From an uncultured delta proteobacterium (lineage in GTDB: Bacteria > Desulfobacterota > WTBG01 > CAIYCZ01), in contig CAWDOY010000019.1 of assembly GCA_963803975.1 (NCBI GenBank), positions 11,723 through 75,722 on the forward strand: a stretch of DNA of 64,000 nucleotides. Reading direction: 5' to 3'. This document shows positions 1,512 through 25,631 of this stretch, one piece after another. Position 1 is the stretch's first letter, and every line of letters starts with the position of its first letter. The notes beneath the pieces are model-generated. The model ran no database searches, was not told where the DNA came from, and worked only from the letters and a program-made list of their open reading frames with translations. The position numbers and the translations under genes were made by a program.

Positions 1512-4126
1512 ATGTCCAGAAGAAGAGATTCTTTACTGATGCTGACAATCGGTATGATAGTATTGCTCCTGCCGGTCTTCGGGCAGGCACAGATACACGC
1601 TCTTATCGTTAAAGGGGTGGCTGCAACTGATTTGTCCGGCATCCCCAAAACGTCTTTCAGCCCCGGCGATACCATCCGCTATACGGTGTCATACTCTGCC
1701 AGCGGGTTCTCCTTTTTGCGGGTGCGCGGCACGGTCGCGTTTACCGGCGCCCCCCAGGAGAAATTGCCCCGGCAATATAAGACCGGCAGCGGCGATTATA
1801 CTATTTCCTGGGACAGCGTCATACCTGCGCAGGCTCTGGGAACGGCAACCGTAACGATACGCTTTTTCAGCCTGCCGGGTAGTTTCGGGACAACTTCCGC
1901 CACTTTTACCGTAGCGGAAAACCCGCCGCTGCCGCCGGCCTCATTTGTAGGAACGTCGCTGTGCATAGCCTGTCACAGCAGTTTCAGCAAAGATATTGTC
2001 GATGCTTATAATGAGTCAGGGCACCACTTCGCCTTGAATGCCGTCAGTAACTCTGCACCGGTATATCCCGGCTTTGCTCCTGGTGTGCCACAGCCGCCGG
2101 CAACTTTTCCGTGGACGGACATTCTCTATGTCGCGGGCGGTTACGGCTGGGAAGCGCAATTTGTAAATCAGGACGGATACATTTTAACTAACGGCGCAGA
2201 TGGCTGTAGACAGCCAGTACAACCTGCCGAACGCATTTTTAAAATTGCCGGGGCAGTTTGTGCCGTACGAGTCAGACCAGACCGCAGCCAAAGCATTTAC
2301 CTGCGGAGCCTGCCACTCCACCGGCTATTCTGCTGCAGGAAACCAGGGCGGTAAGGCCGGCATTGCCGGAACATGGCAGGAGCCGGGGGTCGGGTGCGAA
2401 GCATGCCACGGCCCCGGCAGTAACCATGTCGCAAATCCAGGCGCAGTCAAGCCGCCCAATGATCCGGCGGGTGCCTGCGTGACCTGTCATGTGCGCGATA
2501 CTACAGCAGTGGTCGAGGCGTCTGACGGGCTTATTCTCAGCCAGCAGCAATCTGATGAACTTAATGCCGGTGTGAAATTTTATTTCAAGTGCGTTTCCTG
2601 CCACAATCCCCACGCGTCAGCCCGCTATGATCAGAGCGCTCAGGGCACAGCCATTATTCAGGCCTGCACTAACTGCCACAAGGATAAAACAGTGGGTCTC
2701 GGGAATGAGCTTTCTTAAGTGCACGGACTGCCACATGCCGTATGCTGTTAAATCAGGTGCACATATAAGCTATCAGGATCCGAACAACCTTACGCTGCAC
2801 GCGGGTGATGTGCGTTCTCATATCTTTACTATAAACCCGGATGCTGCCAGCCCGTCAGATATGTTCAGCCCTGATGGCACGTCAATCGCGGTCGGCAGCG
2901 ACGGCAAGGCAAAAGGACTGACGCTTGATTTTGTGTGCCTGTCGTGCCACCGGCAGGGCGGGTTTGCCGCCACCGTCTATAGCTTTGAACAGGTGAAAGG
3001 GCTGGCGTCTTTAGTGCATGGCAGCGCGCCGGGCAAGGGCGGCTATATCGGCTCTACGCTCTGCATTGCCTGTCACTCGGGCAGGAATAAAGACATAGTG
3101 GATGCTTATACGGCTTCCGGCCACCACTTCGCGCTGAATAAGGTAAGCGCAGCCGCGCCGGTTTATCCCGCGTTTGCCCCGGGCGTTCCCCAGCCGCCGG
3201 CCGGGCTGCAGTGGCCGGATATTTTGTACGTGACGGGTGGTTATGGATGGAAGGCAAACTTTTTAAACGCCAGCGGTTATATTATCACCAATGGCAGCAA
3301 TAAGATCGACAGTCAGTACAACCTGCCGGACAATTTTCTCGGCACCAGCGGGCAATTTGTCCCCTATGAAACAAAACAGACAGCGCCAAAAACATTTGAC
3401 TGCGGCCCCTGCCATGCCACCGGCTATACAGCGCAGGGCAATCAGAACAGCCTCGCGGGAATCAAAGGAACCTGGAATGAGGACGGGGTAGGGTGCGAGG
3501 CCTGTCACGGGCCCGGCGAGCAGCATCTTAACAATCCTCTGGGGGTCAAGCCGTCGAATGATCCGAAGCAGGCCTGCGGCACCTGTCATATCCGCGACAA
3601 TACTGCGGTGCTTGAAGCAGAAGAAGGTCTCATCCTGAGCCAGCAGCAGTCTGAAGAATTGAAGGCGAGTGCCAAAAGCTTTCTCACCTGTGACTCCTGC
3701 CACGATGCTCATGCTTCAGCACACTATGACCCGAGCGCACCGGGGACCGGTATAACTACAGATTGCATCGTATGTCACCCCGGCAAGACCATAGGTCTCG
3801 GCATGGCATTTCTCAAGTGCACGGACTGCCACATGCCGTATGCTGTCAAGTCGGGAGCAAATATAAGCTATCAGGACCCGGACGGCCTCGCGCTGAAAAT
3901 AGGTGATGTGCGCTCCCACCTGTTTACTATCAATGCGGATGCGGCAAGCCCCGCTGATATGTTCACGGCTGACGGCACGGGGGTGGCTGTCGATGCGAAT
4001 GGCAAAGCTAAAGGGCTGACGCTTGATTTTATCTGCCTGTCCTGCCACCGGCCGGGCGGGTTTGCCAATACCACCTATACCTATGAACAGGTGAAAGGGT
4101 TAGCCGGTTCAGTGCATCAGGATTAG
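1512..4126 (+). CDS. Secreted 16-heme cytochrome c: signal peptide, Ig-like domain and two tandem octaheme repeats (2 apparent frameshifts at ~2205 and ~2703)
   Basis: ORFs 1512-2354, 2200-2718 and 2627-4126 join into one protein. Repeat 1: CIACH, CGACH, CEACH, CVTCH, CVSCH, CTNCH, CTDCH, CLSCH. Repeat 2: CIACH, CGPCH, CEACH, CGTCH, CDSCH, CIVCH, CTDCH, CLSCH. RBS GGAGA. Confidence 0.9.
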
Positions 4127-4340
4127 CTTTTAAAAATTAAAGCATTTACGATAACATAATATATTCTGAACTTTTATTTTCCATGACCTTGCGAAAACCT
4201 TTAAAATAAGCTACTAAAAATATACAAACCTACAGCACCAACCCAGAATCCTGAAATAAGCTTAGGGTATAACGGGTTGTATATTATATATATACAGCAC
4301 GGAGGGGATCAGTTTAAACCTTTTATTGGGGAGTATTTTT

Positions 4341-6660
4341 ATGACGCAAAGAACAACCAAGCACTGTTTTGCAGTAATGACGCTGTTCGTCTTCCTTTCA
4401 GTAATGCTTATAGCAGCAGGAGACGCAGCAGCACAGACCTACAACCTTCTGGTAAGAGTCAAAGGCACTGCGGGAGCCAATAACCAGGTAACATTGACGC
4501 TTGGCGGTGGAAGCCTTACCACACCGATAGTAAAACAGACCGGGCCGTTTGGATTTGCCTTCTTTACCAGAGTTCCTGCCGGTATCTACACCCTGACGCC
4601 GAGCAAGACCAATGAAGCATTTTTGCCGGAGACAGCAGTCGTTGTCATAAGCACAACTTCAAAACGCTGGACCTTCATTACGTTTGAAACCACCACCATC
4701 CAGAAATTATGGGAAGGCTCCGGCCATGCGGATTCAAAAGCCGAGGCGTTTGTCCACTGGGACGAGGAAGATCCTCCTGAAATTCCTACTTCCTGCGCCA
4801 AGTGCCACAGCACGGCCGGTTTTATTGATTTTGCCCAGGACGGCACGGTGGACACCGCGGTGCCTGCCGGCCCGGATAAAACAAATAACATTTCCTGTGA
4901 TGCCTGCCATGCACCTGCAGCACAGGCTTTGACCAGCGTCAAATTTCCCTCCGGCGCGGTGCTCAGCAACCTCGGCAAAGAGGCCATCTGCATGCAGTGC
5001 CACCAGGGACGCTCTTCAACTCCGCAGGTTGACGCTGCCATTGCCAAGGCCGCGCCTGCTGACGATGACACGCCGACCAGCGCCCTGAGTTTCCAGAATA
5101 TCCACTATTATGCCGCAGCAGCCACGCTGTACGGCGGAGAGGTCCAGGGCGGATATCAATATGCCGGCAAGGCCTATGACATTAAATTCCAGCATGTGGA
5201 AGGCTTTGACAAGTGCTTTGCCTGCCATGACCAGCATTCCCTGCGGGTAAAAACAGAATACTGCGTTCAGTGCCACACCGGCGCGACCGAAGTGGACGAT
5301 TTGAAAAACGTGCGCATGAACGGCTCTCTTGAGGATTATGACGGTGACGGCAACATCACTGAGGGCATTGCCTTTGAAATAGAAGGGCTGCAGGTAAAAC
5401 TGCTTGCAGGCTATTCAGGCATACGCGAGTACGGTCGCAGGAACCAAAATTGCCTATAATGCCGCAGCGTACCCCTACTTCTTTAAAGACGCCAATGGTA
5501 ACGGCACTGCAGACGCTGACGAGACCGCCTATGATGCATGGACCGCGCGTCTGCTGAAAGCTGCCTATAACTACCAGACCTCGCTGAAAGACCCCGGCGC
5601 GTTCGCCCACAATGCAAAATACGTCATTGAGCTTCTGTATGATTCCATAGCAGACCTCAATACCAAGCTTTCAACTCCCATAAGCCTTGCCGGCGCCAGC
5701 CGCGTTGATGAAGGCCACTTTGACGGCTCATCTGAAGCCTTCCGGCACTGGGATGAAGAGGAAGAAGGCGTACCATCAGGCTGCGTCAAGTGTCACACCT
5801 CCTACGGACTGCCCAAAGTGCTGAAGGCAGAGACGCTTGAAGCCGGCCCGCCGTCAAACGGTTTTGCCTGCTCCACCTGCCATGACAACAATGTGACATT
5901 CCCGGTCAGGCAAGCAGGAGAGGTAACGTTCCCGTCAGGGCTGAAGGCGAGCCTTGAGGATGCAAGCAACCTGTGCATGAACTGCCACCAGGGACGCGCA
6001 TCCAAGAAAACCATCGATGACAACATAGCAGCAGACAACTTCGGCTTTGTCAATGTTCATTACTATGCTGCCGCGGCCTCATTTTTCGGGACCGATGTCA
6101 AGGGCGGCTATGAGTATGACGGCAAGACCTATGCGGGAAAAAACACCTTCCCGGCCCATGGCGGGAACCTGAATACCTGCGTGCAGTGCCATATGGGCAC
6201 CAAGTCTGTTGCTAAATCACACATGGTAATACCGAATGTGGCAAACTGCCAGTGCCATGCCATCTCCAGCTTCGACGCTCTGAAGATAAGCGGCAGCGAC
6301 TATAACAAGGACGGCCAGCAGCCGGTGAAGCAGGAGATTGAATCAACGCAGGCAGCCCTGTATGCGCAGATTCAAACCTATGCTAAAGACACCCTGGCTA
6401 AGCCAATTGTTTACAGCCCGACCGCCTATCCGTATTTCTTCAATGACACAAACGGTAACGGCAGTTTAGATGCGGATGAGGCTACCAGTGCCAATGGATA
6501 CAAGTCCTTTGATGCCAAACTTCTGAAAGCTGCATATAATTACCAGTTCAGCATCAAGGAGCCCTGCGGCTATATCCACAACGCGGACTATATGGCCCAG
6601 CTTGCGATTGACTCCATCGGTGATCTCGGCGGCGATGTAAGCAAGTTCAGCAGGCCCTGA
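4341..6660 (+). CDS. Secreted ~10-heme cytochrome c: beta-sandwich N-domain and two tandem pentaheme repeats (frameshift at ~5405)
   Basis: ORFs 4326-5459 and 5404-6660. Both repeats carry GH..S.AEAF.HWDEE...C.KCH, C..CHQGR.S, HYYAAAA and AYPYFF.D.NGNG..DADE. 9 CXXCH plus one CQCH. Signal peptide AAA-Q; RBS GGGGAG before ATG 4341. Confidence 0.9.
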
Positions 6661-6699
6661 TCAGGTACTGCTTGCGTAGTAATCAGGTGTGATGTATCA

Positions 6700-6733
6700 G
6701 GGGAGGCGGATACCGTTCGCCTCCCCTTTTTTT
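6700..6733 (+). terminator. Rho-independent terminator
   Basis: GGGGAGGCGGA-TACCG-TTCGCCTCCCC hairpin followed by T7, 40 bp after the stop at 6660. Confidence 0.85.
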
Positions 6734-6738
6734 CGCTG

Positions 6739-6804: not shown

Positions 6805-7911
6805 ATGAAGCACAACCACAGCCCATTACTATTAATAATCCTGCTCTTTGCAGGCATCGCCTGTTTCCCCTCCGGGGCAAGCGCTGCGCCGGTGCACCTG
6901 CTCGATTTTACCGGCATCACGATAACCGATAATCTGGGAGTACCCACAACAGAGTTCGGACCGGGAAATGTCGTCAATATTGAAGCTGCATTTACCCTCA
7001 GCCCGGCCGGGCATTGCATGGCTGCGCGGCACTGTTACTGGCACGAACTGGTCGGCAGAACTTCCGCTGAGATTCCGCTTTGGCCTAAAGGGGGATTACA
7101 AGGCAGCGTGGGCTATAACCATTCCAATAACAGCAACCGGCCTGACGCAGGTTGAGATCACCCTGGTCAATCCCTTGCAGGAGCGTGTTATACGCAGCGC
7201 CTTTTTCACTGTTACCCCTATCCAGGCGGCATATGTGGGTTCTGATGCCTGCAGCCTGTGCCATCCTGATGTCTTTGCTGCCTGGAAACAGACTCTGCAT
7301 AATCCGTTCGCGGGATGTGAAGTGTGCCACGGGCCCGGCAGCGAGCATATCCTGACCCAGTCTCCGCAGTTTATAGTTATTAATAAAACGTCACAGCTTT
7401 GCGGGCAATGCCACGGGCAGAACAACGGTCAGGGTATTGCAGCCGGTAATGGTTTCATTAAACCGCAGCAGCAGTACAATGAATTGCAAGCCACCCGTCA
7501 TGGCATGCGTTCTGGTGTGCGTCACCTGCCACAACCCGCATTACAGCATCAGTGCCGCGCCGGCAAAGGCCATCAAAGTCAACTGCCGGGAATGCCACGC
7601 AAATAAGAACGTTGATCTGTTAATGGAGGAACGTCGCCTGCGTGGAATGCCACATGCCGTATGCGGTACTGAAGACGCAGTCAACCGGCGCGGGGCCCTA
7701 CCGCAAAGGTGACGAGCGGACCCACATCGTGCGGATTAAAACCGAGGCAAATCCCCAGGATATGTTCATGCCGGGCGGCACGGCACTCCGCGAGGATGCG
7801 CTGGGAGCTTTTATTACTGACAATTTTGCCTGTCTGGGCTGCCATAATGGAGTGATTGCCCGCTTTGAGACGTTTGAAGATGTTCGTAAAACCTCTACGC
7901 TGATTCATTAG
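6805..7911 (+). CDS. Secreted heptaheme cytochrome c with Ig-like N-domain (3 apparent frameshifts at ~7010, ~7505, ~7635)
   Basis: Joined ORFs give a signal peptide, an Ig-like domain resembling that of the 1512 gene, then CSLCH, CEVCH, CGQCH, CVTCH, CRECH, CVECH, CLGCH. CHMPYA and GD.R.H motifs are shared with the 1512 repeats. Confidence 0.85.
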
Positions 7912-8139
7912 CGATCTGCCTCTGGCGCGCTTTCAGACAGTGCTTTTGATCTGCCCGGAACCCTGCAGGCGCGCAAACCTGACCATGCTTGCGGCCAGGA
8001 GGATTGAATATTGATTCCTGAAGAAAGGAGAGTGTGAAACGCATTCTCCTTATTTTTATATGGAATTCATTAATAATCTTTGTTATATAGAACTATCAAT
8101 CTACCAGCATGATCGTTCTTCTTTCCTGAATCTAAACGC

Positions 8140-8880
8140 ATGAGAAAATTATTCATTATACTGATTGGCATTACTGCGTGCTGTTCAGCCTTCAACTGTG
8201 CCGTAACGGTCAGCTGCGCTGAAGAGGTCGGCATGGTCCTGGTGCCGGGCGGCAAATGCAGCCTGGGAGCAGAGGACGGTGACCCTGATGAGATGCCAAT
8301 ACATGAAGTGTATGTTGATTCTTTTTATATTGACGTGCATGAGGTAACCATCGGGCAGTACAAAAAATTTATGGAAGCGACCGGCCACCAGAAACCGCTC
8401 TACTGGCAGCCGGAACTCGACCGTAACGAGGACCCGGTTGTTGGCATAAGCTGGCAGGATGCCGCGGCGTATGCTTCATGGGCAGGCACCAGGCTCCCCA
8501 CCGAGGCTGAATGGGGGTATGCTGCCCGCGGGGGGAGTATGCATGGCAAATACCCGTGGGGTGATAAGCCGGATACGAGTTACGCAAATTTTAAATCATT
8601 TGGCATATTACCGGTAAAAAGTTTAAAGCCAAACGGGTACGGCTTGTACGACATGATTGGTAATGTGTGGGAATGGTGCTCGGACTGGTATGACAGTGCC
8701 TATTATTATTCAAGCCCGGGGAAAAACCCCCGGGGACCGGTTGCAGGAACGCATAAGGTTCTGCGCGGCGGGGCCTGGTATTGTGATGATAAAGAGGTAA
8801 GGGTAACAAACAGATTCTTTGCTCTTCCGGATGCAAAGAATTACAACGTCGGTTTCCGCTGCGTGAAATCTGTCAAATGA
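8140..8880 (+). CDS. FGE-sulfatase (SUMF1-like) domain protein with signal peptide
   Basis: Motifs EVT..QY, P.V..SW.DA.AY..W, RLPTEAEW.YAARGG, PNGYGLYDMIGNVWEW, RGGAW, GFRC. Confidence 0.9.
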   Translation: MRKLFIILIGITACCSAFNCAVTVSCAEEVGMVLVPGGKCSLGAEDGDPDEMPIHEVYVDSFYIDVHEVTIGQYKKFMEATGHQKPLYWQPELDRNEDPVVGISWQDAAAYASWAGTRLPTEAEWGYAARGGSMHGKYPWGDKPDTSYANFKSFGILPVKSLKPNGYGLYDMIGNVWEWCSDWYDSAYYYSSPGKNPRGPVAGTHKVLRGGAWYCDDKEVRVTNRFFALPDAKNYNVGFRCVKSVK

Positions 8881-10040
8881 GCCGTAGATCATTATTGCTA
8901 TTCCTGCTGCTATTGTTGTTCTGCATGTCATCACGGGCATACGCTGTTGACGAGGAGAACTGCCTCCTGTGTCATAGATATTCAGGCCTGGGAAGAATTG
9001 ATAAAGAGGGCAAGAAGCACCTCTACTATGTCAATGAATCCCTCTACAACCAATCGGTCCACGCTAAAGTCCGCTGTGGAGAATGCCACACGGATATTAA
9101 AGGGTTTCCCCACGGCACAATAAAAAAAGTTGACTGCGCTGCGGTCTGCCATCTTGTTGACCCGTCAAACAATAAGCCCTTCTCCCATGCCAGCATGATT
9201 GAGAAATATGAGCTGAGCGTTCACGGCAAGGGCCCAAAAGACAAACCCAAGCAACATACTGAAGATTTGCCGACCTGCACCTACTGCCATGACAACCGCA
9301 TCTACCAGCCGGTCAGCAAGCTTGCCAGCAATGAGCGAGGCATGGCACAGGAAATCCTTGACCGCTGCATGGGCTGTCATACCAATACTGAATGGACCAG
9401 TGCGTTTTATTATCATTTCACCGAGCGTCTTCATCAGCGGCGCTCTTCCAAGCGGATGGTAGAGCTCTGCACGTCATGCCATGAAGATGAAACAAAGATG
9501 TCGCGTCATAAGATTGCGATAGTGAGCACCTTCCGTGATACATTCCACTGGCAGGCAATAAAATATGGTGATCCGAATGCGCCTAATTGTATTACCTGTC
9601 ATGCACCGGTAGGGTATTTTTCCCACGAGATAATGCCCAAAAGTGATACCCGCTCAGCCCTGTATAAGGATAACCTGGTGCGCACCTGCAGCAATCAGGG
9701 CGGCGTGCAGATGTGCCATCCCGATGCCACACCAAGCTTCGCCCAGGGCAAGATTCACCCGCTGCAATTCAAGGCAGGTATTTTTGATAACCAGCAGGAT
9801 GCTTTGAGCAGAAAACAGGAAATCGAGAAAGGAACCTTCAAACCATTCCAGACGCTGCTCTCAGAAATGGTGCGGGGCGATAGCGGAGACCAGGGGAAAC
9901 TGCAGGGGATGATCCTGGTGCTGATAAAATATTTCTACATGCTTTTGATCGGGGGGCTTATCAGCAGCATGATGGTACATCAGATACTTGATTTTATCGC
10001 AACCCGCAGAGAACTGCGCAGGAAGGATAGACCGATATGA
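8877..10040 (+). CDS. Membrane-anchored octaheme cytochrome c (module 1)
   Basis: Signal peptide, 6 CXXCH plus CAAVCH (CX3CH) and CSNQGGVQMCH (CX8CH), C-terminal transmembrane helix. Confidence 0.88.
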   Translation: MSRRSLLLFLLLLLFCMSSRAYAVDEENCLLCHRYSGLGRIDKEGKKHLYYVNESLYNQSVHAKVRCGECHTDIKGFPHGTIKKVDCAAVCHLVDPSNNKPFSHASMIEKYELSVHGKGPKDKPKQHTEDLPTCTYCHDNRIYQPVSKLASNERGMAQEILDRCMGCHTNTEWTSAFYYHFTERLHQRRSSKRMVELCTSCHEDETKMSRHKIAIVSTFRDTFHWQAIKYGDPNAPNCITCHAPVGYFSHEIMPKSDTRSALYKDNLVRTCSNQGGVQMCHPDATPSFAQGKIHPLQFKAGIFDNQQDALSRKQEIEKGTFKPFQTLLSEMVRGDSGDQGKLQGMILVLIKYFYMLLIGGLISSMMVHQILDFIATRRELRRKDRPI

Positions 10041-10753
10041 AACAGGATACCGGACAGCCACAGCCGGGTTCATCAGGGCATAGCCACGGGGCCGAAAAAT
10101 ATTACCTGCGCCTGAACCTGCATGAAAGAATCCAGCACCACCTCACCTGGTCTACCTTTGTGGTTTTGGCCCTCACCGGATTCATGGTGGAATTTCCTGA
10201 AGAATGGATCGCTGTCTTCGGCTCATACCAGGAAGCGGTGTTTTACTGGCGCGGAATTATTCACCGGGTTGCAGCAGTCGTGATGGTGTTCAACATGGTT
10301 TATCAGGCCTGGTATATGCTGCTGACGGAAGCCGGAAGAAACTATTTAGCTGCAATGCTGCCGAGGCTGCAGGATGCCAAAGATATTAAGCACAATCTCG
10401 CCTATTATATCGAGCTGACTCATGACAAGCCGCGATTTGACCGGTTTAATTACAAGGAGAAGCTTGAATTCTGGACCGGGCTGATCGGCGGCATCATCAT
10501 TACCGTGACCGGCTTTTTTCTCTGGTTTCAGCAATATTTCCCAAAATTTATATTTGATGTATCTGTTCTGGTGCACACCATGGAGGCGATCCTGGCATCC
10601 AGCGCAATCATGGTGTGGCATTTTTACGAGGTACATCTGAAACCGGGTAAATTCCCCATGTCAACAATCTGGCTGGACGGCAAAATCTCGGAACACGAGC
10701 TGAAAGAAGAGCATCCGCTTGAGTATGAGCGGATAGTGAATAGTGAAAAGTGA
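10037..10753 (+). CDS. Diheme cytochrome b, FdnI/HydC-like (module 1)
   Basis: Four hydrophobic helices with RIQHH...LALTG, IHRVAA, RFNYKEKLEFW, VHTMEA and WHFYEVH. ATGA overlap with the upstream gene. Confidence 0.9.
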   Translation: MKQDTGQPQPGSSGHSHGAEKYYLRLNLHERIQHHLTWSTFVVLALTGFMVEFPEEWIAVFGSYQEAVFYWRGIIHRVAAVVMVFNMVYQAWYMLLTEAGRNYLAAMLPRLQDAKDIKHNLAYYIELTHDKPRFDRFNYKEKLEFWTGLIGGIIITVTGFFLWFQQYFPKFIFDVSVLVHTMEAILASSAIMVWHFYEVHLKPGKFPMSTIWLDGKISEHELKEEHPLEYERIVNSEK

Positions 10754-10885: not shown

Positions 10886-11653
10886 ATGACAAATCCCTTA
10901 CTGAAACTTATCTCCAAGCTGCTTGGATTCCTGGCGTTGCTGGCCATTATTTTCTGCTTATACAGCCTCGCCCGGTTTCTCTATTTCCAGCCCCACCGGC
11001 AACCCGTGTCCAGAGAGCAGGTTGTTGCTGAAAAGTTCAGTAAAAAGCTGCGCCGCGACATAGGAACCGGCCATTTCCATGTGTCGGATGAGCCTATAAC
11101 CACTGATATTGAGACCGCCCCCATGTGCCTGCGCTGCCACGGTAATTTCTGCCACAACAAATCTGAAGAATTCAGATCATATTATAATATGCATACTTTT
11201 TTCCTTGCCTGTGAAACCTGCCACATCAGGAAGGAGCAGGGCTCAGCTATCCGGTTTACATGGTTTGACGACAAGACCGGCACGGAGTTGAAACAGGTTA
11301 AGGGTCAGGATGAAAACTATGGGGCTAAAATTGTACCCGTCAAGCCAGAAGGGCAGGGGTTTGAGCGGCTTGATGTATTTCCTGAGAATGAACCTGGCGT
11401 TTGATTTTTTAAAAAATAAAGATAGTTATGCTGCTGAACAAAAGGAAAAAATTAAACAGCAACTGATGAAACATATCTCCAAGAAACCCGTAACCTGTGA
11501 GGAATGTCACTGCAAAGAAGCATATCTGAACTACAGGACCTGGGATATGATGCAAACCGTTCTGCAGACCTTTCCCGCATCGAGATTGTGAAAATGATCA
11601 AGGAGTATAAGGATTTCAAATTCCCGGTTATTTTTGGTTCAGAAAAAAAATAG
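10886..11653 (+). CDS. Membrane-anchored triheme cytochrome c (module 1; frameshifts at ~11392 and ~11537)
   Basis: N-terminal TM helix, HFH, CLRCH...NMH...CETCH and CEECH. The rejoined C-terminus LGYDANRSADLSRIEIVKMIKEYKDFKFPVIF matches the two paralogues. Confidence 0.82.
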
Positions 11654-14525: not shown

Positions 14526-15475
14526 TGAAGCGCCGCAGAATATTTTTCTTCTTTCTGACTGCAGGAGTGGTTCTTTTTTCTTCAGGCAGCGCTCATGCCT
14601 TTAAGATAACCCCGCTCAAGCACCTGTTTGACCTTGAGCACGGCTTTCTCCAGCCCAGCGACGTTGAGGTGGGTAAGGACCACAGAATATACGTGCTTGA
14701 CGGGGTGAACAACCAGGTGAAGGTGTTTGATGAAAAAGGTCCATTCCTGTTTTCCTTTGGCAGCAGGGGTCAAGCAAAGGGCCAGTTTGAATCTCCCCTC
14801 GGCCTCTCCATTGACAGCACGGGCAGGGTCTTTGTGGCTGATACCGGCAACCGGCGCGTGCAGCTATTTTCTGCTGAGGGAAAAGCGCAGTCTGAATTTT
14901 CCATCACGTTAAAAGATGCGCAGCATGCCTGCGACCCGGTAGATCTCGCGCTTGATGAGAAACGCAATAGAATATACGTGGTTGATAATGAGAACCACAA
15001 AGTGCTTTTGTACTCCCTTGACAAGTTTTCCTTCCTTGAGAGCTGGGGAAAAGAAGGTGATGGACGCCAGGAATTCCGCTACCCGTTTTTTATAGCAGCG
15101 GGAAAGGACGGTACGGTTTTAATCGTGGACGTGCTCAATACCCGGGTCCAGGCATGGGACCCGAAGGGCAGGGCAATAAGCACCATTGGTGAATGGGGCG
15201 TTGACGTGAGCCAGTTCTACCGGCCCAAGGGAGTATGCGTGGATAAGGACAACCGGGTGTTTGCCAGTGACAGCTATCTGGGGGCAATCCAGGTATTCAA
15301 CCGTTACGGCAGCTTCCTGTCAGTGCTGGGGGATGAGTCCGGGAAAATCATCAAATGGAAAACACCTGTTGGCATGGCAATTGATGACCGGCAGCGGCTG
15401 TACGTGGTGGACATGATTGCCAACCGGGTGTGTGTATATCAAATTTTAGACAAAGATATTGAGGTGGCCAGATGA
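14525..15475 (+). CDS. Secreted NHL-repeat beta-propeller protein
   Basis: Repeated F..P.G/D.......YV.D..N.RV..F units and a signal peptide AHA-F. Confidence 0.92.
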   Translation: MKRRRIFFFFLTAGVVLFSSGSAHAFKITPLKHLFDLEHGFLQPSDVEVGKDHRIYVLDGVNNQVKVFDEKGPFLFSFGSRGQAKGQFESPLGLSIDSTGRVFVADTGNRRVQLFSAEGKAQSEFSITLKDAQHACDPVDLALDEKRNRIYVVDNENHKVLLYSLDKFSFLESWGKEGDGRQEFRYPFFIAAGKDGTVLIVDVLNTRVQAWDPKGRAISTIGEWGVDVSQFYRPKGVCVDKDNRVFASDSYLGAIQVFNRYGSFLSVLGDESGKIIKWKTPVGMAIDDRQRLYVVDMIANRVCVYQILDKDIEVAR

Positions 15476-17349
15476 ACCGCAAAAAAATTGTGCTGCTCTG
15501 TATTGTTGCTTGTCTTTTGCTGTTGCCCCTATGGTGCTCCCTGTCATTTGCCCGTGACCCTGAAAACTGCCTGTTCTGCCACAAGTACCGGAGGCTCCGG
15601 GGGTATGATGAAAAGGGGGTTCTGCACAATTATTATGTGGATGCAAAGCTGCATAATGAATCTATCCATCGCGACGTGGCGTGCGTTGACTGCCACACGG
15701 ATATTGACCAGGTGCCCCACAAGGCTGAAGCTAAGAAGGTTGACTGCTCCAAGGAGTGCCATATCGATAAATGGAAGATTATGAGCGGCGGCCCCTTTTC
15801 CCACCGGGATGTTGCCGAGAATTATCGCAGCAGCATTCACGGCGTCAAGCCTGATGACAAGCCGGAAGTCGCCCAGCTGAAGCCTGACTGCAAATACTGC
15901 CACCTGGATGATGTCTATGAGCTGTCTGAAGAGGTGCCTTCAGACGCCGTGCTGAAGCGCTGCATGAACTGCCATAAGGAAAAAGGGCTGAAGGATATCT
16001 TTATCCATATCTATCACCGCTTCAAGCGCAAGCATGTGAGAAAGCCGCTTGAAATCGTGGAGCTGTGCTCAGGCTGTCATGCGGACAAGGATTTTCAGAA
16101 TGTCATGGGGTTTACCGGCGCGCGCGCGGAAGTGGTTGAGACCTACAAGGAGACCATCCACTACCGCATCCTGCAGCTGGGGGGGCAGGATACGGCTGAC
16201 TGCACCAATTGTCATGCCGGTGGAACAATACATAACATTCTGCCGTCCTCAGACCCGAAATCATCCGTCAACCCGGAGAACCGGTACCGCACCTGTCAGG
16301 CTGAAGGCTGTCATCCCGGGGCCAGTCCGAAGATATCAAATATTGACAGTCATCTGAGCAAGGACAAGGATAAGGGCATTGAAATCACCGTGGTTGAATC
16401 AGCCATGCAGGGGGTGATGTGGTTTACCCTGTTTTTCCTCTTTACCCTCATGGGCATGGAGACCTACGGCCGGCTGAGAAACCGTGATGCGCGGTTCGCC
16501 CGCTGGCTGCGGGTTCCGCAGAAATACCCCGGCAACATGCCGGCCGGGGAACATCATCTCGGCGAAATACCGAACCTGCACCGCTATGTGGAGTTCAATC
16601 CCAAAGGAGATTATCCCCGGTATTCAATTAATATCGTAATCAATCATTTCCTGGTCGGGATTACCTTCACCGTGGCAGTTGCTACCGGCCTGCCTCTCTA
16701 TTTTCACAACTCCGCCATCTCCCATGAAGTAATAAATCTCGTGGGCGGGATTAATGTGACACGGGTAATACACCGTTTCAACGCAGCCCTGTTTACGTTT
16801 AACTGCATCTATCATCTCATCGTGCTGCTCTGCGGAACGTTGAAAAAAATGAGCAGCAGGACCTTTGACATCCGCCGCACCCAGTTTCCCCTGTGGAAGG
16901 ATGCGAAAGACCTCTATTTTGATATCCGCTATTTCCTCGGGCTGGAGAAGGCGCGGCCGCACATGGAAAAGTTCATGTACAAGCAGAAAGTCCACTACCT
17001 GGCAATGATCTGGGGCTGCTCGGTACTGACCTTATCCGGGGTGTGCCTGCTGTTCCCGGAAAGCATGGTCACGTATCTTCCGTTCCCGAAAGTCTCTTTT
17101 AACCTGCTGCGCCTGCTCCATGCGGACGAGAGCGTACTGGCCTTCCTGGTCATTACGCTCTGGCACCTCTACAATGTGCACATCGCTCCGGGCCGCTTCC
17201 CTCTGCAATGGGCATTCTGGAACGGCCGCATTACCAGGGATCATCAGATAGAGGAGCACTTTCTCGAGTATGAGCGGCAGGTGAAAGAGGGCGTTGCAGA
17301 ATGCGAAGAAGACAAGCTGGCGAAAGGAGGGCAGCGCAATGAGCAGTAA
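15472..17349 (+). CDS. Octaheme cytochrome c fused to cytochrome b, CbcL-like architecture (module 3)
   Basis: DPENCLFCH, 6 CXXCH plus CSKECH and CQAEGCH, a TM helix, then cytochrome b motifs NH..., ATGLP, IHRFNA, KFMYKQKVHY, LHADE and WHLYNVH. Confidence 0.9.
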   Translation: MNRKKIVLLCIVACLLLLPLWCSLSFARDPENCLFCHKYRRLRGYDEKGVLHNYYVDAKLHNESIHRDVACVDCHTDIDQVPHKAEAKKVDCSKECHIDKWKIMSGGPFSHRDVAENYRSSIHGVKPDDKPEVAQLKPDCKYCHLDDVYELSEEVPSDAVLKRCMNCHKEKGLKDIFIHIYHRFKRKHVRKPLEIVELCSGCHADKDFQNVMGFTGARAEVVETYKETIHYRILQLGGQDTADCTNCHAGGTIHNILPSSDPKSSVNPENRYRTCQAEGCHPGASPKISNIDSHLSKDKDKGIEITVVESAMQGVMWFTLFFLFTLMGMETYGRLRNRDARFARWLRVPQKYPGNMPAGEHHLGEIPNLHRYVEFNPKGDYPRYSINIVINHFLVGITFTVAVATGLPLYFHNSAISHEVINLVGGINVTRVIHRFNAALFTFNCIYHLIVLLCGTLKKMSSRTFDIRRTQFPLWKDAKDLYFDIRYFLGLEKARPHMEKFMYKQKVHYLAMIWGCSVLTLSGVCLLFPESMVTYLPFPKVSFNLLRLLHADESVLAFLVITLWHLYNVHIAPGRFPLQWAFWNGRITRDHQIEEHFLEYERQVKEGVAECEEDKLAKGGQRNEQ

Positions 17350-18160
17350 TGGAAAAAAATCGACCGCAGAGCCGTTTATCGCTTTTATCATTATTATCGC
17401 TCTTGCGGCACTCCTCAGCGCGTATCTTACGTTCAGGGTGCAGTTTGAGCGGCGCAAGGAGCCAGCCGAACCAAAGACTAAAGAGGTGTCGTTCCAGACG
17501 CTGCGCGTAAAAGAGCAGGAGCGTAAACAGAAGCATGAACATTTTCACCTGGTGACTGAAGACGTGAATCTTGAAGCATGGGCAGACAAATCAACCTGCC
17601 TGATCTGTCATTCGCCCTATCCCCACGGAAAGAACAAGAAAGCCAAGGCCATCATGAACCTGCACACCGAGTTTTTGACCTGCCATGCATGCCATTCAAA
17701 AGAGGAGTTCGAGGGGAAGGTCAAGTTCGGATGGGTTAACCCAACCGCTCATAAGCCCCAGGGCAAGCCCTACGGCACGTCGATAGATGTTGCCAACGGC
17801 CTGTTTGCAGAGACTGATGACCATTATTCCAAGCTCACGCCTTTCATACCGGTAAGCGGTGCATGGAAGCCCGTGACCTCGGAAGAAGGGGTGGCAGAGG
17901 CAAAAACATATATGGAACAGGGCACAGCGTATTCGCCTGAGAAAAAGAAGGAGATCGAGGACCGGCTGCACCGGGGCACAGAGCTCAAAGAGTTTATCAA
18001 GTGCTCTTCCTGCCATTCGGCAAGCGGCATTATGAATTTCAAGGAGCTGGGCTTTGACCCGGCACGCATAAATCAGCTGGTGAAAATGGAAATCGGCGGC
18101 ATGATAACCAATTATGATGTATTCTATTTCCCGCAGATCTTTGAGGAAAAATTCAAGTAG
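17339..18160 (+). CDS. Membrane-anchored triheme cytochrome c (module 3)
   Basis: RBS AAGGAGG before ATG 17339, TM helix, HFH, CLICH..PH, CHACH, CSSCH. Confidence 0.85.
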   Translation: MSSNGKKSTAEPFIAFIIIIALAALLSAYLTFRVQFERRKEPAEPKTKEVSFQTLRVKEQERKQKHEHFHLVTEDVNLEAWADKSTCLICHSPYPHGKNKKAKAIMNLHTEFLTCHACHSKEEFEGKVKFGWVNPTAHKPQGKPYGTSIDVANGLFAETDDHYSKLTPFIPVSGAWKPVTSEEGVAEAKTYMEQGTAYSPEKKKEIEDRLHRGTELKEFIKCSSCHSASGIMNFKELGFDPARINQLVKMEIGGMITNYDVFYFPQIFEEKFK

Positions 18161-18319: not shown

Positions 18320-20419
18320 TTGGCTATGTTTTTGTCTGTTGTCAGTATTCTGTATTCATTTGCGCGTATGCATAAAAACTCTATTATAGTACTCTCTATA
18401 ATTATCTGTATATGCCTTGGCGTCCTTCCCGCGCATGCCCAGCTGCGGGCTCCCCGCCAGACTGATTCGGCAAAAAAATGCGCCATCTGCCATTACCGCT
18501 GGATCTACACTTTTTATGTTGAACACCGGGGCACGCCTCTGGCCCCGCTTGATGAAAAAGAAGTTGTGGGCAGCAGTGAGATGTGCCTTTCCTGCCACGA
18601 TGGCTCGGTGCGGGACTCACGGGATAAAATCTGCAATGACCCCGGACATCGGGTAGGTATCGTGCCGTCACAACACGTGAGAATCCCTAAAAACTTTCCG
18701 CTGGATGATCAGGGCAAAATGCAGTGTTCCACCTGCCACACCCCGCATGCGGTAAGTTTCGAGCAGGGCATGCAGTTCACCTTCTTTCTGAGAAGCGTCA
18801 ACAAGGATTCCTCGTTCTGCAAGGAGTGCCATGTTGAAAAGACCGGCGGGCCGGACAAGGGAAACCATCCGATTGATGTCTCGGCAAAGAAAGTTCCCGA
18901 ACTGATAATCAAGGCAGGCGGCAGGATGGGTAAATCAATGCCGGACCAGATAATATGTGAGACCTGTCATACCCCGCACGGCGGCGTTAATAACCAGCGG
19001 CTGGTGCTGTCTGTCGAGGATCCCCTCACCATGTCGGTGCTCTGCGAAGTCTGTCATACAAAAAGCCCTGATGCCATTAAAAATTCCGGCGCCAACCGCT
19101 TCTCGCACCCGCTTGATATAAGCCCGGATAAAGCTGTCCAGATACCAAAAAAATGGGCGTGCGGAGAGGACGTGGTGCTCGGTAAAGGAGGGGTGCTGGT
19201 GTGCCGCACCTGTCATAAGCCGCACCAGGCAATTGAAAAAAAGGTCCTTCTCGCAGACCGCAATATTCGGGATTCCATGTGCGGCGAGTGTCACCAGGGA
19301 AAACAGAATATCGCCGGCTCAAGCCATGATTTGAAGGTTTCAGCACCCAACGATAAGAACATCCAGGGAAAGCGCGCCGCGGAAATCGGCACGTGCTCCC
19401 CCTGCCACCTGGTGCACCAGGGTACTGCGCGCTATATGTGGGCGCAGCCGTTGAAAAATTCCGTCAGCACGCCGGATGACTTCTGCAAAACCTGCCACGC
19501 GCAGGGAGCAAGCGCGGAGAAAAAGCTTCCCGGGAAATTCTCCCACCCGATCGGCGTCCGGGTGACGCCGCAGGCGACATCGAAACTTCTTCCCCTGTCT
19601 GATGAAAGGGGCAACCGGGCAAACAATGGCATTATCCGCTGCTTTACCTGTCACGATGTCCATAATCCTGCACCGCTCTATGCGAGCACAGAGAGAAGAG
19701 AGATAAAACATGGCAAATTCCTGCGCCTCTCGCAGTCACAGCCTTCTGAGGTATGCATTGCGTGTCATGCAGCGCAGGGAATGATTCAGGGCACAGACCA
19801 CGATCTGCGGATTATTGATGCGCGCTATAAAAATGTGCTCGGTGTCCCGCTGCAGGGCGGCGGGATATGCAGCCCCTGCCATGCGGCACATAACGCGCCG
19901 CAGCAGCAGTACCTATGGGCAACTCCATTGGGGCCTGGCAGCCTGGATAAATGGAAGGGTCAAACCGGATACCGCGACAGCATCATGACTAAACTGTGCA
20001 CCGGATGCCACGCCCCGGGAAAAATCGCAGCGGAGAAAAATCCCCAATGCGCTTTTCATCCGGGCGCCATTACGGGTCATGCCGGCTCACACCAGCCCGG
20101 AGAAACGATTATTAATTACGACCTGTTTAATGAACAATATCCCGTTTATACTGACGCGGGAAAGGTGGGGAAGGGTGGCTTTATCGTCTGCTCGACCTGT
20201 CATAATCCTCATGTATGGAAAAACCAGCGTGAGAAAGGTCCCGGGAAAAAGGTTGAGGGAAATGCGACAAACAGTTTCTTAAGAGAACAAATTGTCTCCC
20301 AGTTCTGTGTGCGCTGCCATGGAGAGGAAGGGCCCTCTAAATTCCTCTACTTCCACAGCCAGCTCAGCAGGGAAAAAGCATCGTCACCGTTTCTGCAGTT
20401 CCAGGACACAGACAAATAG
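18320..20419 (+). CDS. Periplasmic 16-heme cytochrome c, doubled-CXXCH type (true start probably ATG 18368)
   Basis: 16 CXXCH counted; repeated HP...C.TCH.PH...LR...C..CH units; signal peptide AHA-Q. Confidence 0.9.
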   Translation: MAMFLSVVSILYSFARMHKNSIIVLSIIICICLGVLPAHAQLRAPRQTDSAKKCAICHYRWIYTFYVEHRGTPLAPLDEKEVVGSSEMCLSCHDGSVRDSRDKICNDPGHRVGIVPSQHVRIPKNFPLDDQGKMQCSTCHTPHAVSFEQGMQFTFFLRSVNKDSSFCKECHVEKTGGPDKGNHPIDVSAKKVPELIIKAGGRMGKSMPDQIICETCHTPHGGVNNQRLVLSVEDPLTMSVLCEVCHTKSPDAIKNSGANRFSHPLDISPDKAVQIPKKWACGEDVVLGKGGVLVCRTCHKPHQAIEKKVLLADRNIRDSMCGECHQGKQNIAGSSHDLKVSAPNDKNIQGKRAAEIGTCSPCHLVHQGTARYMWAQPLKNSVSTPDDFCKTCHAQGASAEKKLPGKFSHPIGVRVTPQATSKLLPLSDERGNRANNGIIRCFTCHDVHNPAPLYASTERREIKHGKFLRLSQSQPSEVCIACHAAQGMIQGTDHDLRIIDARYKNVLGVPLQGGGICSPCHAAHNAPQQQYLWATPLGPGSLDKWKGQTGYRDSIMTKLCTGCHAPGKIAAEKNPQCAFHPGAITGHAGSHQPGETIINYDLFNEQYPVYTDAGKVGKGGFIVCSTCHNPHVWKNQREKGPGKKVEGNATNSFLREQIVSQFCVRCHGEEGPSKFLYFHSQLSREKASSPFLQFQDTDK

Positions 20420-20424
20420 GTTAT

Positions 20425-21999
20425 GTGGGTATCATGCGCTTAAAACCATTATATGTATATATGCTGCTTCTGACAGGAACAATGCTTTTTTGCAGCAGAC
20501 TCAGTGCGGCTGAAACCGGCAAACAGGCAATAAATCCTCACTGGACCGGGAAGTACTGTGAGGAATGCCATACCAGTAAGAATCCCCAGCAGAAAAATGC
20601 GTTGCTTCAATTTGCCGGCGATCCCATTAAACTGTGCGACAGGTGCCATTCCCGGGCCTGTGTTACCGTACAGAGCCACTCCATTGAGGTGCAGGTAAGC
20701 AAAGACATGGAGCGCAGGTTTCCCTCCGGATGGCCGCTTAACAAAGGGAACGTGAGCTGTCTTACCTGCCACGATGCGCTGCTGCAGATGCATGATGATT
20801 TCTCTGTGCAATGGATGAACCCGAACTTTCTGCGCGGGGCACCGTACAAAAAAAAGACAGATTTTTGTTTTATCTGTCATCCGAAGGAACAGTTCCAGAA
20901 AACCAATCCCCACAAGCTGCTCGACGGCCAGGGAAAAATTATTCCGCAAAACTGTCTTGTCTGTCACAATACCGTGCCTGACCCGTCACGGCAAAGAGGC
21001 GCCGGCTCCGTCATGCTCAAGGAGCCGATCGCGTCGGTGTGCATCGGCTGCCATCCGGCGCACTTTGCAAGTCACGGGGCTGATAAAGGACAGCTGCAGG
21101 TATCAGCGGATATGCGCAGGGCGCTGGACAGAAGGGAGCGGGCTCAGCATGTTGATCTGCCTCTTTTAAATGACCGCATCATGTGCGGCACCTGTCACAA
21201 TCCCCATGAAAAGGGCGTGATGCAGACGGCTGCGGTGCAGAGCGGGGCAGGAGAGAAATATTTTCTGCGGATGAATGGCGGATATGAGCTGTGCGTGGCG
21301 TGTCATGATGAAAAGCAGGTGAAAGACCGGAGGCGCCAGGCGCAGCAGGCGCTGCAGGAAAATTTTAAGTCGACGCCGGATGTCCTGCTGTCACATAAAC
21401 CGTTTGCAGAAAACAAGTGCAAGGCCTGTCACGAAGTGACATTGCAGCACCGGGAGAAGCCGGAAGCAGTCTATCTGTGCTTCAGGCAGGGCTGTCACAA
21501 GCCGGAGATGCTCAAAAAGCCATACCTGCATTATAAGCCGGTTGTTGGAAACTGCTATGCCTGTCATGAATCGCATGCCTCAGGCTATGGCAAGCTCCTC
21601 AGAGTGGACGAAGAAACGCAGTGCTACTCATGCCATCCGCTGTTTAATGATAAGAAGAGCAGGGATGTGCCTGACATTGACAAGAAGAGAAGCAATAAAG
21701 AGCACCGGGAATTTGCAGCATACCTGAAGACCAGTTCAGTGCCTGAGGGCAATGACTGCGGTTTCTGCCACAACATGAAGCACCGCACAAATATCGGCAC
21801 CATGGCGCCGGGAGCCTGCTCCAGCTGCCATCTCTATGTCAGGGGTATACTGCAGGGAAGTGCCTCCCGGCCGCTGAATGTGCACCAGACGTTTAAGGAG
21901 AAGCTCTGCTCGCAGTGCCACGATCCCCATGCGGGTACCTATAAATACCAGCTCAAGAAACCGCCTGAAACCTATCTTATAAATGAACTAGATTTGTAA
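20425..21999 (+). CDS. Periplasmic ~15-heme cytochrome c
   Basis: 14 CXXCH plus CFRQGCH, signal peptide and NPH motifs. Confidence 0.9.
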   Translation: MGIMRLKPLYVYMLLLTGTMLFCSRLSAAETGKQAINPHWTGKYCEECHTSKNPQQKNALLQFAGDPIKLCDRCHSRACVTVQSHSIEVQVSKDMERRFPSGWPLNKGNVSCLTCHDALLQMHDDFSVQWMNPNFLRGAPYKKKTDFCFICHPKEQFQKTNPHKLLDGQGKIIPQNCLVCHNTVPDPSRQRGAGSVMLKEPIASVCIGCHPAHFASHGADKGQLQVSADMRRALDRRERAQHVDLPLLNDRIMCGTCHNPHEKGVMQTAAVQSGAGEKYFLRMNGGYELCVACHDEKQVKDRRRQAQQALQENFKSTPDVLLSHKPFAENKCKACHEVTLQHREKPEAVYLCFRQGCHKPEMLKKPYLHYKPVVGNCYACHESHASGYGKLLRVDEETQCYSCHPLFNDKKSRDVPDIDKKRSNKEHREFAAYLKTSSVPEGNDCGFCHNMKHRTNIGTMAPGACSSCHLYVRGILQGSASRPLNVHQTFKEKLCSQCHDPHAGTYKYQLKKPPETYLINELDL

Positions 22000-22090: not shown

Positions 22091-22853
22091 TTACTTTGAG
22101 ATAGCAGCCTTGGCTTCCTTTGCTCCAAGAGCCAACAACTTAGCTGAAGTAGTTTCATCATACGGGTAAATATACGAGGATTTTTTCAAATAGGGGAATG
22201 GGTTCTGGATATTTATTGTGTTTTCGTCCCAGGTTATCTGCAGTCCTGCAGGCTGCGAGCCCCTCAAGCTCACGGCGGTAACGGTTGCAAACACCGCATC
22301 ATCGCTCAACCCGACATCCATTAAAGCGTAAGGATGATACCGAGCATCTTTCTCCAGGTCTTTTCTCAGTCCGTAAGAGACCTTAATTCCGTCATGGTTT
22401 TGCCTTTCCATAATTTTGAGAAGGACCTGTAGTTTCTCACTATTGGCCAAAACATCATCGGATATAATGAATATACGTGACACCATAACCCCTCTTTCCA
22501 CCGTCCGCACATTATCACGATAAAGATATTCGAGGGTTGTATTCCATCCGAAGACATAATGGTTCAGAGCCTCGTATTTTGATTTGGTTGACTTCAGCAT
22601 CCGGATTAGTTCATGGATGGTCTCTTCTTCGTTGGTCGTGTTTAAATAATGTTTCAGCGAACCCGGAAAGGTCCTGTTCTATTGCGCTCAGTTTGTTGGC
22701 AGCGTAGGCGGGCAGAGTCGTTTTTTTGAGCTGCTCAATGCTGGCTGCCAAATTATTTTCTTCACCTATAGCGGGTGAGGCTGCTATGAAAAGCACACAG
22801 GGAAAAACTAAAGCGGCATAAAATATTTTTACATAGGTATCATAGATATTCAT
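22091..22853 (-). CDS. Hypothetical exported protein (frameshift at ~22612)
   Basis: ORF 22611-22853 has a signal peptide and a GGAGGA RBS, and continues in ORF 22091-22600. Confidence 0.6.
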
Positions 22854-25028: not shown

Positions 25029-25031
25029 GTA

Positions 25032-25631
25032 TTAGCCTCTGGTTATTTTTAAAATATGTGGGATGGTAACTTTAGGGTTTCCCGGAGCATGGGGGTTATG
25101 ACAGTCAATGCAGAGCGGATAATATCGGGTAAATTCTGACAGTTCTTTCATGTTACTAATAAATTCATTTAACCTGGATAAGTCTTCGGGATTGGAAAAC
25201 CCGTGTTTTAAAGACCATTTGATATGAAGATTAAAATCTTGTATCTGGGGAATGTTATCAGGGCGTGACTCCTGGTATTGATGGCATCTGAGGCATAATT
25301 GCAATGATAAATCTTTAGGGACTCTTATTTTAGTGTCTTCACTGTGTGCTTGCAGGAAACCATGGCAGGTTTCACATGCAATATCAGCATGACCCCCGCG
25401 TATCATTACATACTTCCTCATCTCGTGGCAATCCGCACACTTTTCAGTACCCTGGTAGACTACCGGTATGCTTTCCTGCTCTTTCAGTGCATCAGCCCGG
25501 TAATACATGTATTTATAATCACCATGAAGCCCAAAGGACGGTGGGATAAGAAAGCTTCGCACTGCGATGAAGCCGGCCATCGCAAGCACTATAAGGATAC
25601 ATAAGCGCAATATATATCTATAGCGACCCAT
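25032..25631 (-). CDS. Membrane-anchored tetraheme cytochrome c
   Basis: N-terminal TM helix, P.SFG..G, CADCH, CETCH, CLRCH, CIDCHNPH. Confidence 0.88.
   Translation of the reverse strand: MGRYRYILRLCILIVLAMAGFIAVRSFLIPPSFGLHGDYKYMYYRADALKEQESIPVVYQGTEKCADCHEMRKYVMIRGGHADIACETCHGFLQAHSEDTKIRVPKDLSLQLCLRCHQYQESRPDNIPQIQDFNLHIKWSLKHGFSNPEDLSRLNEFISNMKELSEFTRYYPLCIDCHNPHAPGNPKVTIPHILKITRG

Follow-up and report, generated by a model that had tools for sequence, protein, structure and literature searches.

The question raised by this locus is what an uncultured member of the Desulfobacterota does with twelve c-type cytochrome genes packed between positions 1512 and 25631 of one stretch of DNA (hereafter the window, that is, all 64,000 nucleotides analysed, G000:C19:11723-75722, from the genome G000, which has 4.25 Mb in 57 contigs and a completeness given as 98%). 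We found that the core of this cluster, at 8140-21999, is an operon with three paralogous units, each combining one cytochrome b of the FdnI type with two c-type cytochromes, of eight and of three haems, and we consider that this core probably works in the manner of CbcL, carrying electrons from menaquinol to acceptors outside the cell.

The cluster itself is real and coherent, and it stands far above chance. Translation of 1512-25631 gave 93 in-frame CXXCH motifs in the twelve cytochrome genes (A 16, B 9, C 7, D 6, F 3, G 6, H 3, I 6, J 3, K 16, L 14, and 4 in an NrfD-linked tetrahaem cytochrome) together with 8 variant motifs (CXCH in B, CX3CH and CX8CH in D, CX4CH in L, and CX3CH plus CX4CH in each of G and I), or 101 haem motifs overall. 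The six-frame count of CXXCH in the same stretch is 95, where 50 shuffles gave a mean of 1.78 and a maximum of 6, and the remaining 38 kb of the window hold 2. This recount agrees with the initial annotation, and the three cytochromes b (all PF01292), the NrfD with its 4Fe-4S partner, the NHL propeller, and the FGE domain that it had also listed are all borne out by Pfam matches. A foreign island was ruled out, because the GC content in 2-kb windows is 0.46-0.56 across the cluster and 0.45-0.57 elsewhere in the window, and because the core is conserved throughout the class. The core and the hairpin preceding it are laid out as follows.

8025..8051, plus strand: terminator-like hairpin before the core operon (consensus match)
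8140..8880, plus strand: FGE-fold exported protein with a possible lipobox (PF03781, E 2e-65)
8877..10040, plus strand: unit 1, D, 8-haem (6+2) cytochrome with a C-terminal anchor (translation and alignment)
10037..10753, plus strand: unit 1, E, FdnI-type dihaem cytochrome b (PF01292, four His conserved)
10886..11650 (end approximate), plus strand: unit 1, F, N-anchored tri-haem cytochrome (frameshifts at 11386 and 11534)
11791..12876, plus strand: unit 2, G, 8-haem (6+2) cytochrome with a C-terminal anchor (translation and alignment)
12854..14525, plus strand: unit 2, H, cytochrome b fused to a tri-haem domain (556 aa when intact)
14525..15475, plus strand: exported NHL beta-propeller (PF01436, E 1e-30)
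15472..17349, plus strand: unit 3, I, 8-haem (6+2) domain fused to cytochrome b, CbcL-like (PF01292 and alignment)
17339..18160, plus strand: unit 3, J, N-anchored tri-haem cytochrome (translation)
18368..20419, plus strand: K, 16-haem cytochrome with a signal peptide (translation)
20434..21999, plus strand: L, 15-haem (14+1) cytochrome with a signal peptide (translation)

These genes overlap or are closely spaced, the largest gap being 207 bp, and a promoter scan gave 28 against 19.2 +/- 4.4 by chance, a slight excess. The three units are split differently (D|E|F, G|H, and I|J) and are paralogous, with identities of 35-41% between the 8-haem domains, 31-34% between the b domains, and 24-35% between the tri-haem domains; the 8-haem domain is exported and anchored at its C-terminus, and the tri-haem domain is also anchored. 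Four His are invariant in all ten aligned b domains, and a search of G000 for PF01292 cytochromes b found E, H, and I and no others. The profile of H matches FdnI (1kqf_C, E 1.6e-9) and octahaem tetrathionate reductase (OTR; 1sp3_A, E 5.9e-8), the latter through the tri-haem domain, which resembles the last haems of that enzyme and also gives partial TIGR04315 matches. Searching by sequence for relatives of solved structure gave weak HAO matches for I (E 0.005) and none for K, and an Atlas search with a homologue of J returned mostly hypothetical clusters. As for the FGE-fold protein, it is likely a non-catalytic partner of the unit; formylglycine-generating enzymes carry a catalytic cysteine pair motif, and in the corresponding region 13 aligned sequences have at most one variable Cys. 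Both this protein and the NHL protein are likely scaffolds or assembly factors.

The coherence of the unit is best seen in relatives, where its parts are found fused. A one-chain unit of 889 aa (I and J fused) is encoded in the relative G008 and one of 921 aa in G013, and of the 147 50%-cluster representatives newly listed, from the 150 best of 2837 matches, 13 are one-chain units, one of their clusters including a Ca. Delongbacteria protein. Other fusions carry a K-type domain behind the whole unit (P0077, 26% over 626 columns, E 3e-40), an FGE domain joined to cytochrome b plus the tri-haem domain (P0299), or the 8-haem and tri-haem domains joined to each other and lacking the cytochrome b (P0068). 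The structural model of the 889-aa fusion (pLDDT 83.5, pTM 0.76) shows six long helices after the signal, and its best structural match is FdnI (1kqf_C, Z 14.7, rmsd 3.7, 207 residues), all fold-search matches of this model being taken up by the b domain. Gene I has five helices after the signal, and in the full fusion the sixth bears the tri-haem domain; with six predicted helices, therefore, both c-haem domains are predicted to lie on the periplasmic side, outside the inner membrane.

Which known system does this unit resemble? Gene I, like the CbcL/MtrH/MtoC family (GSU0274), combines an N-terminal multihaem domain with a dihaem cytochrome b of the FdnI/HydC type and has no FeS, flavin, NiFe, or molybdopterin subunit, and the 3-23 CX2CH motifs reported for the multihaem domain of that family (PMC6295460) accommodate D, G, and I, each with six CXXCH and two variants before the first helix. 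Unlike CbcL proper, a Geobacter clade of 58-100% identity, the units of the window have eight haems (6+2) in place of nine; I has five membrane helices after the signal, where the CbcL/MtrH/MtoC family mostly has six in one chain and four or five in a few exceptions; where CbcL has nothing behind its b domain, the units add an anchored tri-haem domain related to the OTR C-terminus, fused or adjacent in all three; and they come as three paralogues per operon with dedicated FGE-fold, NHL, 16-haem, and 15-haem partners. CbcBA (Cbc5, GSU0593-0594) offers the same separation of a dihaem cytochrome b from a C-terminally anchored multihaem cytochrome that is seen in D|E and G|H, whereas, comparing by layout, CbcA has seven haems and not eight; in the accessible descriptions, CbcB homologues are annotated as thiosulfate-reductase-like and no tri-haem partner is mentioned. 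By analogy of architecture, then, the unit would work like CbcL or CbcBA and would not be an orthologue of either, given its eight haems and tri-haem domain.

Related proteins are already in print, so that the system cannot be called undescribed, as had been suggested at first. In 2014, Dester_0351 and Theam_0871 were reported within porin-cytochrome clusters as having six typical plus two atypical haems and similarity to formate dehydrogenase (FDH) cytochrome b (PMC4245776), a signature of 6+2 haems plus FDH cytochrome b that gene I shares, by signature and not by alignment. In Desulfurivibrio alkaliphilus, DA_2140 is a membrane protein with 6 CXXCH among 8 CXnCH (1095 bp, 364 aa), and DA_2141 is a "CbcL-like" protein with 3 haems (1749 bp, 582 aa) (PMC12545173); in length and in number of haems the two agree with G and H, and both genes, located in a porin-cytochrome cluster (DA_2136-2141), rise by log2 3.0-3.4 with ferrihydrite versus nitrate and by log2 1.5-1.8 with ferrihydrite versus S0 disproportionation (PMC12545173 Table S3). 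The Dester/Theam and DA_2136-2141 clusters are described with a single copy and an adjacent Pcc-type outlet, in contrast to the three copies and unlinked OmcK/GSU2204-type outlet discussed here. As in the 26-/16-haem operon of SEEP-SRB1 (OetABI; PMC5539420, PMC10553843), a propeller protein, six-bladed in that system, accompanies a 16-haem periplasmic cytochrome; identity with that operon was ruled out, given that the window has no 26-haem cytochrome gene and no peptidyl-prolyl isomerase among its 48 proteins scanned, and the four core SEEP-SRB1 proteins lack membrane helices, unlike the window core with its cytochrome b unit.

A conduit of this kind needs a way out of the cell, and there is no porin gene within the 64-kb window, unlike in a pcc-type cluster, where the porin stands beside the cytochromes. 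Most of the relatives examined have such an adjacency. We surveyed all 42 genomes of the class (unit at E<=1e-35; OmcK family, NF041028, at E<=1e-60) and found the unit in 26 and OmcK in 25, both together in 23, the unit alone in 3, OmcK alone in 2, and neither in 14, counts that come from related genomes that are not independent, several of them incomplete. Neighbourhoods were then compared in 13 of the 25 relatives carrying the unit, picked for long contigs: the FGE-fold, K, and L genes are there in 13/13, the NHL gene and C in 12/13 each, and B in 2/13, all three paralogue types occur together in 3/13, and OmcK plus a GSU2204-family porin lie within the same fetched stretch in 11/13. G000 itself has an OmcK/GSU2204-type pair on another contig (C20:38150-41620), whose decahaem cytochrome scores 355 bits with NF041028 (cut-off 325), and whose porin scores 295 bits with NF041027 on a frameshifted piece (cut-off 350) besides a weak MtrB/PioB match; this pair on C20 is the likely outlet for the chain of the window. 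In Geobacter, GSU2203/GSU2204 are up 1.5-2.7-fold with haematite or magnetite (PMC4070692), and OmcK/OmcL (GSU2203/GSU2204) appear in the accessible part of PMC10553843 with no adjacent quinone module.

J has matches in 23 of 401 genomes of a phylum sample. Beyond the class, the unit is followed by the NHL gene in all four stretches fetched, and in other phyla the same core was found at named loci in Deferribacterales, including Seleniivibrio, and in a gammaproteobacterial metagenome-assembled genome. In Seleniivibrio woodruffii (L024), the core is followed by a 28-haem cytochrome, more cytochromes, and a 414-aa porin-like gene. Near the porin pair of some relatives (L034:1185-3560 in G008, and also G005, G009, and G012) we observed a 9-haem cytochrome with a rhodanese-like protein, a hint at sulfur or selenium chemistry in these organisms; no relative of solved structure was found for the first 589 aa of the 9-haem protein of G003.

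Regarding the host, no dsrA over the cut-off was found in the 21 genomes of the order searched, G000 included, which rules out a sulfate-reducer context, and G000 gave no PF02335 match for NrfA. Its genome encodes MqnA, acetyl-CoA synthase, and several molybdopterin enzymes, and shows partial family matches only to NiFe-hydrogenase. Two other redox loci were seen: an HmcABC-like complex (NF045713 above the cut-off) among Wood-Ljungdahl genes at G000:C54:167400-180500 (L056), in this genome without dsrA, and an alternative complex III-like set, by gene content, of an FeS protein, two NrfD, and two cytochromes at G000:C14:213900-223000 (L065).

We favour the outward conduit because the unit is designed like CbcL and occurs in fused forms, because it is linked to the porin pair in relatives, because a sulfite-reductase sink is missing, and because the D. 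alkaliphilus cluster is induced on ferrihydrite. Menaquinol would be oxidised at the b domains of the three inner-membrane units, and the electrons would pass from there to the periplasmic haem domains, then to K and L, and would leave through the OmcK/GSU2204 porin-cytochrome pair encoded on C20, towards extracellular acceptors, for instance Fe(III) minerals or partner cells. The quinol chemistry, the order from unit to K, L, and OmcK, and the outward direction belong to this proposal, and the three paralogues may be tuned to different redox potentials, by analogy with ImcH, CbcL, and CbcBA. Such a path had in good part been foreseen, since a quinone-linked CbcL-like conduit to 15-16-haem periplasmic carriers, most likely for extracellular electron transfer, still stands, without the four membrane modules and the secreted outlet then proposed.

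Several facts weigh against this reading. CbcL/MtrH/MtoC proteins occur in Fe(III) reducers and in Fe(II) oxidisers, with no distinguishing feature given in the accessible text (PMC6295460); the FdnI-type b domain conserves energy inward and not outward (10.1101/2022.08.31.506072); and OmcK/L are highly expressed in an electron-accepting partner of ANME (PMC10553843). The G003 cluster includes a Tat-signal FdhAB that lacks a cytochrome b of its own, and such an FdhAB is also found beside a second copy of gene A, on contig C33 of G000. The comparison with D. alkaliphilus is one of size, haem count, and order and not of sequence, the class counts and the 13 neighbourhoods carry the dependence and the selection already given, no porin lies in the window, and in family f1 the OmcK pair and the unit are on different contigs in 4/4 genomes.

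Part of this evidence would suit electron uptake, in which a partner cell, a reduced mineral, or a periplasmic formate dehydrogenase would feed electrons through the multihaem chain to menaquinone, to be reduced at the cytoplasmic face with a gain of proton motive force as in FdnGHI. The FdnI fold is electrogenic in precisely this inward sense (10.1101/2022.08.31.506072), OmcK/L serve uptake in HotSeep-1 (PMC10553843), and the Wood-Ljungdahl pathway could be the sink. Moreover, the Tat-signal, Sec-containing FdhAB on C33 of G000 has no adjacent membrane subunit in a genome where E, H, and I are the only PF01292 cytochromes b found. The cluster of G003 includes an operon (fdhEAB) for a Tat-signal formate dehydrogenase, and in G008 and G028 this operon stands at a distance of up to ~7 kb from the cluster. 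FdhA, however, does not track the unit, being present in 13/26 genomes with it and 8/16 without it, which rules out formate dehydrogenase as an obligate partner as a rule; no dissimilatory sulfite reductase that could act as a sink was found in the order, and the signature-matching D. alkaliphilus cluster is induced with Fe(III) as the acceptor (PMC12545173). We regard uptake as the main rival, with a chance well short of even, and keep the outward conduit as the preferred reading.

A third possibility arises from the genes upstream of the core, given here with the hairpin between them.

1512..4126, plus strand: A, signal peptide, haem-free N-terminal domain, and two tandem 8-haem OcwA-related domains (16 CXXCH)
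4341..6660, plus strand: B, two tandem 5-haem repeats with the NrfA/OcwA/OmhA fold (9 CXXCH plus CXCH)
6699..6727, plus strand: terminator-like hairpin after B (13-pair stem and T run, consensus match only)
6805..7911, plus strand: C, 7-haem cytochrome related to the A domain (translation)

A, B, and C are accessory OcwA/NrfA-like cytochromes. An A domain matches OcwA (6i5b) with E 1.3e-8, and the tandem junction of A is bridged by contigs of two independent sequencing runs, X3 and X19; gene A has a 93% DNA duplicate on C33. B had no relative of solved structure by sequence; its model (pLDDT 91.7) places the repeat at a VIA Z of 10.6-11.5, about 11 to each and tied, to NrfA, OcwA, and OmhA (PDB 6qvm, which we take to be OmhA), with the next row at 6.9. 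B differs from these enzymes in consisting of tandem five-haem repeats without CXXCK, the motif of the active-site haem of NrfA, and no CXXCK occurs in the translations of A, B, or C. Their N-terminal domains gave no Pfam match, and with the common lipobox motif as the pattern, the three proteins have ordinary signal peptides only and no lipobox, so the secreted Ig-tagged cytochromes once proposed as the outlet give way to the C20 pair as the likely one.

It had likewise been argued that the locus contains no catalytic subunit and must be a conduit. No molybdopterin or NiFe catalytic subunit was indeed found among the 48 window proteins scanned with Pfam, but haem-only terminal reductases have to be considered, since B has the NrfA/OcwA fold and A resembles OcwA, and an fdh operon lies in the G003 cluster. 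The units might, then, feed A, B, or C as reductases of soluble acceptors, such as nitrogen or sulfur oxyanions reduced in the periplasm, so that no outer-membrane outlet would be needed. OcwA slowly reduces nitrite and hydroxylamine (PMC6703420), the tri-haem domain resembles the C-terminal haems of OTR, and the window lacks a porin. Nevertheless, B has no CXXCK and is near the core in 2/13 relatives versus 11/13 for the porin pair, the terminator-like hairpins set B and C apart from the core, and the OTR match covers its last haems and not the whole enzyme, all of which makes soluble-acceptor respiration improbable beside the outward conduit.

Related cytochromes were also observed elsewhere in G000. 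A second cluster at C53:13500-22200 (L051) has a B-type tandem cytochrome, a cohesin-domain protein, a cytochrome c554-like protein, a CcsB-type maturation gene, and a 28-haem cytochrome with an N-terminal cohesin domain, and is a candidate surface-anchored wire, and a cytochrome of at least 22 haems beside a two-component system is duplicated at C40:29324-31782 and C41:724-3007.

Downstream of the core, the remaining cytochrome of the cluster belongs to a separate module on the opposite strand.

22091..22853, minus strand: ORF(s) in the variable insert, with no Pfam match, present in L083 only
23035-24273, minus strand: NrfD (Pfam)
24273-25028, minus strand: Tat-signal 4Fe-4S protein (Pfam)
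25032-25631, minus strand: anchored tetrahaem cytochrome (4 CXXCH)

This triad is a convergently transcribed, strain-variable insert: the segment 21978-25888 is present in contig L083 and skipped in L085, L087, and L011, and the triad is absent from the neighbourhoods of all 13 relatives, which together rule it out as a part of the core. Hence, of the four membrane modules counted by the initial annotation, three are paralogues of one unit and the fourth is this insert. By architecture only, it resembles Cbc4 (CbcSTU), with an anchored tetrahaem cytochrome, an FeS protein, and NrfD, and differs from it in being a strain-variable insert on the opposite strand. A second copy of the triad lies on contig C47 (69/64/42%), and an NrfD-type triad is found at the end of the cluster at locus L015.

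Could the cluster be an assembly artefact joining several loci, or a degraded one? Frameshifts break A, B, C, F, and H in the G000 assembly, and segments duplicated at 85-97% occur, among them a stretch on C33 that repeats the DNA upstream of gene A and the gene itself (C33:2799-18594 versus C19:1-15840, mostly 89-96%), in which gene A is followed by fdhEAB in place of B; many such duplicates in G000 suggest mixed strains or haplotypes. We compared contigs from 4 of the 22 runs (X1, X3, X19, and X20), with 12 of 41 indel rows listed, and the single-base differences at 5404, 7001/7002, 7628, 11386, 11534, and 14213 are missing from these independent contigs; errors of the G000 assembly therefore account for the breaks in B, F, and H and for two of the three in C. 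An intact 556-aa H is known (P0245, 96% identical), and for A (breaks near 2250 and 2705) and the third break in C (near 7510) the deduction comes solely from intact G003 orthologues. DNA contigs of X1 and X3 bridge the junctions A-B, B-C, D-E, F-G-H, NHL-I, and I-J, L089 covers 16834-20625 at 96%, and L083 covers 18272-26822 at 97%; the C-FGE, E-F, and H-NHL junctions fall outside the listed bridging pieces and are supported by synteny in relatives. With most junctions bridged by independent contigs free of the frameshifts, and the gene order kept in relatives, the misassembly that the initial annotation had named as a risk did not occur, and the artefact explanation, already largely refuted, has a negligible chance of being right.

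As to its occurrence, 11 of the 22 listed runs contain at least half of the sampled words, all 11 being recorded as metagenomes from freshwater, from sediment, or of unspecified origin. Two RNA runs of one study (X19 and X20) have contigs that cover 29/30 and 30/30 bins of 1300-21299, mostly at 90-99% identity, which we do not count as evidence of expression, because there is no silent control stretch and DNA is possible in such libraries. A depth peak near 10760-10860 was dismissed, being accompanied by loose ends and not gene-specific.

Elsewhere in the window, a dispersed repeat of ~160 bp at 644-804 has 89 BLAST matches of at least 80 bp across G000. Another type, with 8 matches in G000, lies in the J-K interval at 18184-18334, and both are possibly miniature mobile or REP-like elements. 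A single PqqD-family gene (26806-27105) is flanked by a lipoprotein-like gene and recC, and the 692-aa product of a gene at the contig end (61843-63921) has Ig-like repeats of the DUF7507/CARDB type and is likely a surface protein.

In summary, the new elements are a three-part unit that shows a series of fusions, its triplication in one operon, and its class-wide link to the OmcK/GSU2204 pair in a lineage without Dsr; a search that left out most subscription journals found no published account of a triplicated operon, or of a three-part unit that includes the tri-haem domain. How electrons are drawn from the quinone pool or delivered to it has been worked out in only a few proteins of Geobacter and Shewanella, and the unit, judging from sequence, is likely a widespread variant of the Geobacter iron-respiration wiring, the CbcL design with a second haem domain, kept in three long-diverged versions (24-41%). 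It provides a marker and a testable hypothesis for the respiration of a sulfate-reduction-negative sediment lineage, and the question can be addressed now, because cultured Seleniivibrio carries the core, by sequence, and Desulfurivibrio a signature-matching cluster. More speculatively, and with rather long odds in our estimation, the unit may represent an unnamed family of two-exit quinone oxidoreductases, in which one cytochrome b would serve two periplasmic haem chains, one bringing electrons in from periplasmic dehydrogenases or partner cells and the other carrying them out via K, L, and the porin, with the three ancient paralogues acting as potential-tuned gates. If that were true, it would make a whole uncultured, Dsr-less order of the Desulfobacterota a common electroactive group of freshwater sediments, respiring minerals or partner cells.

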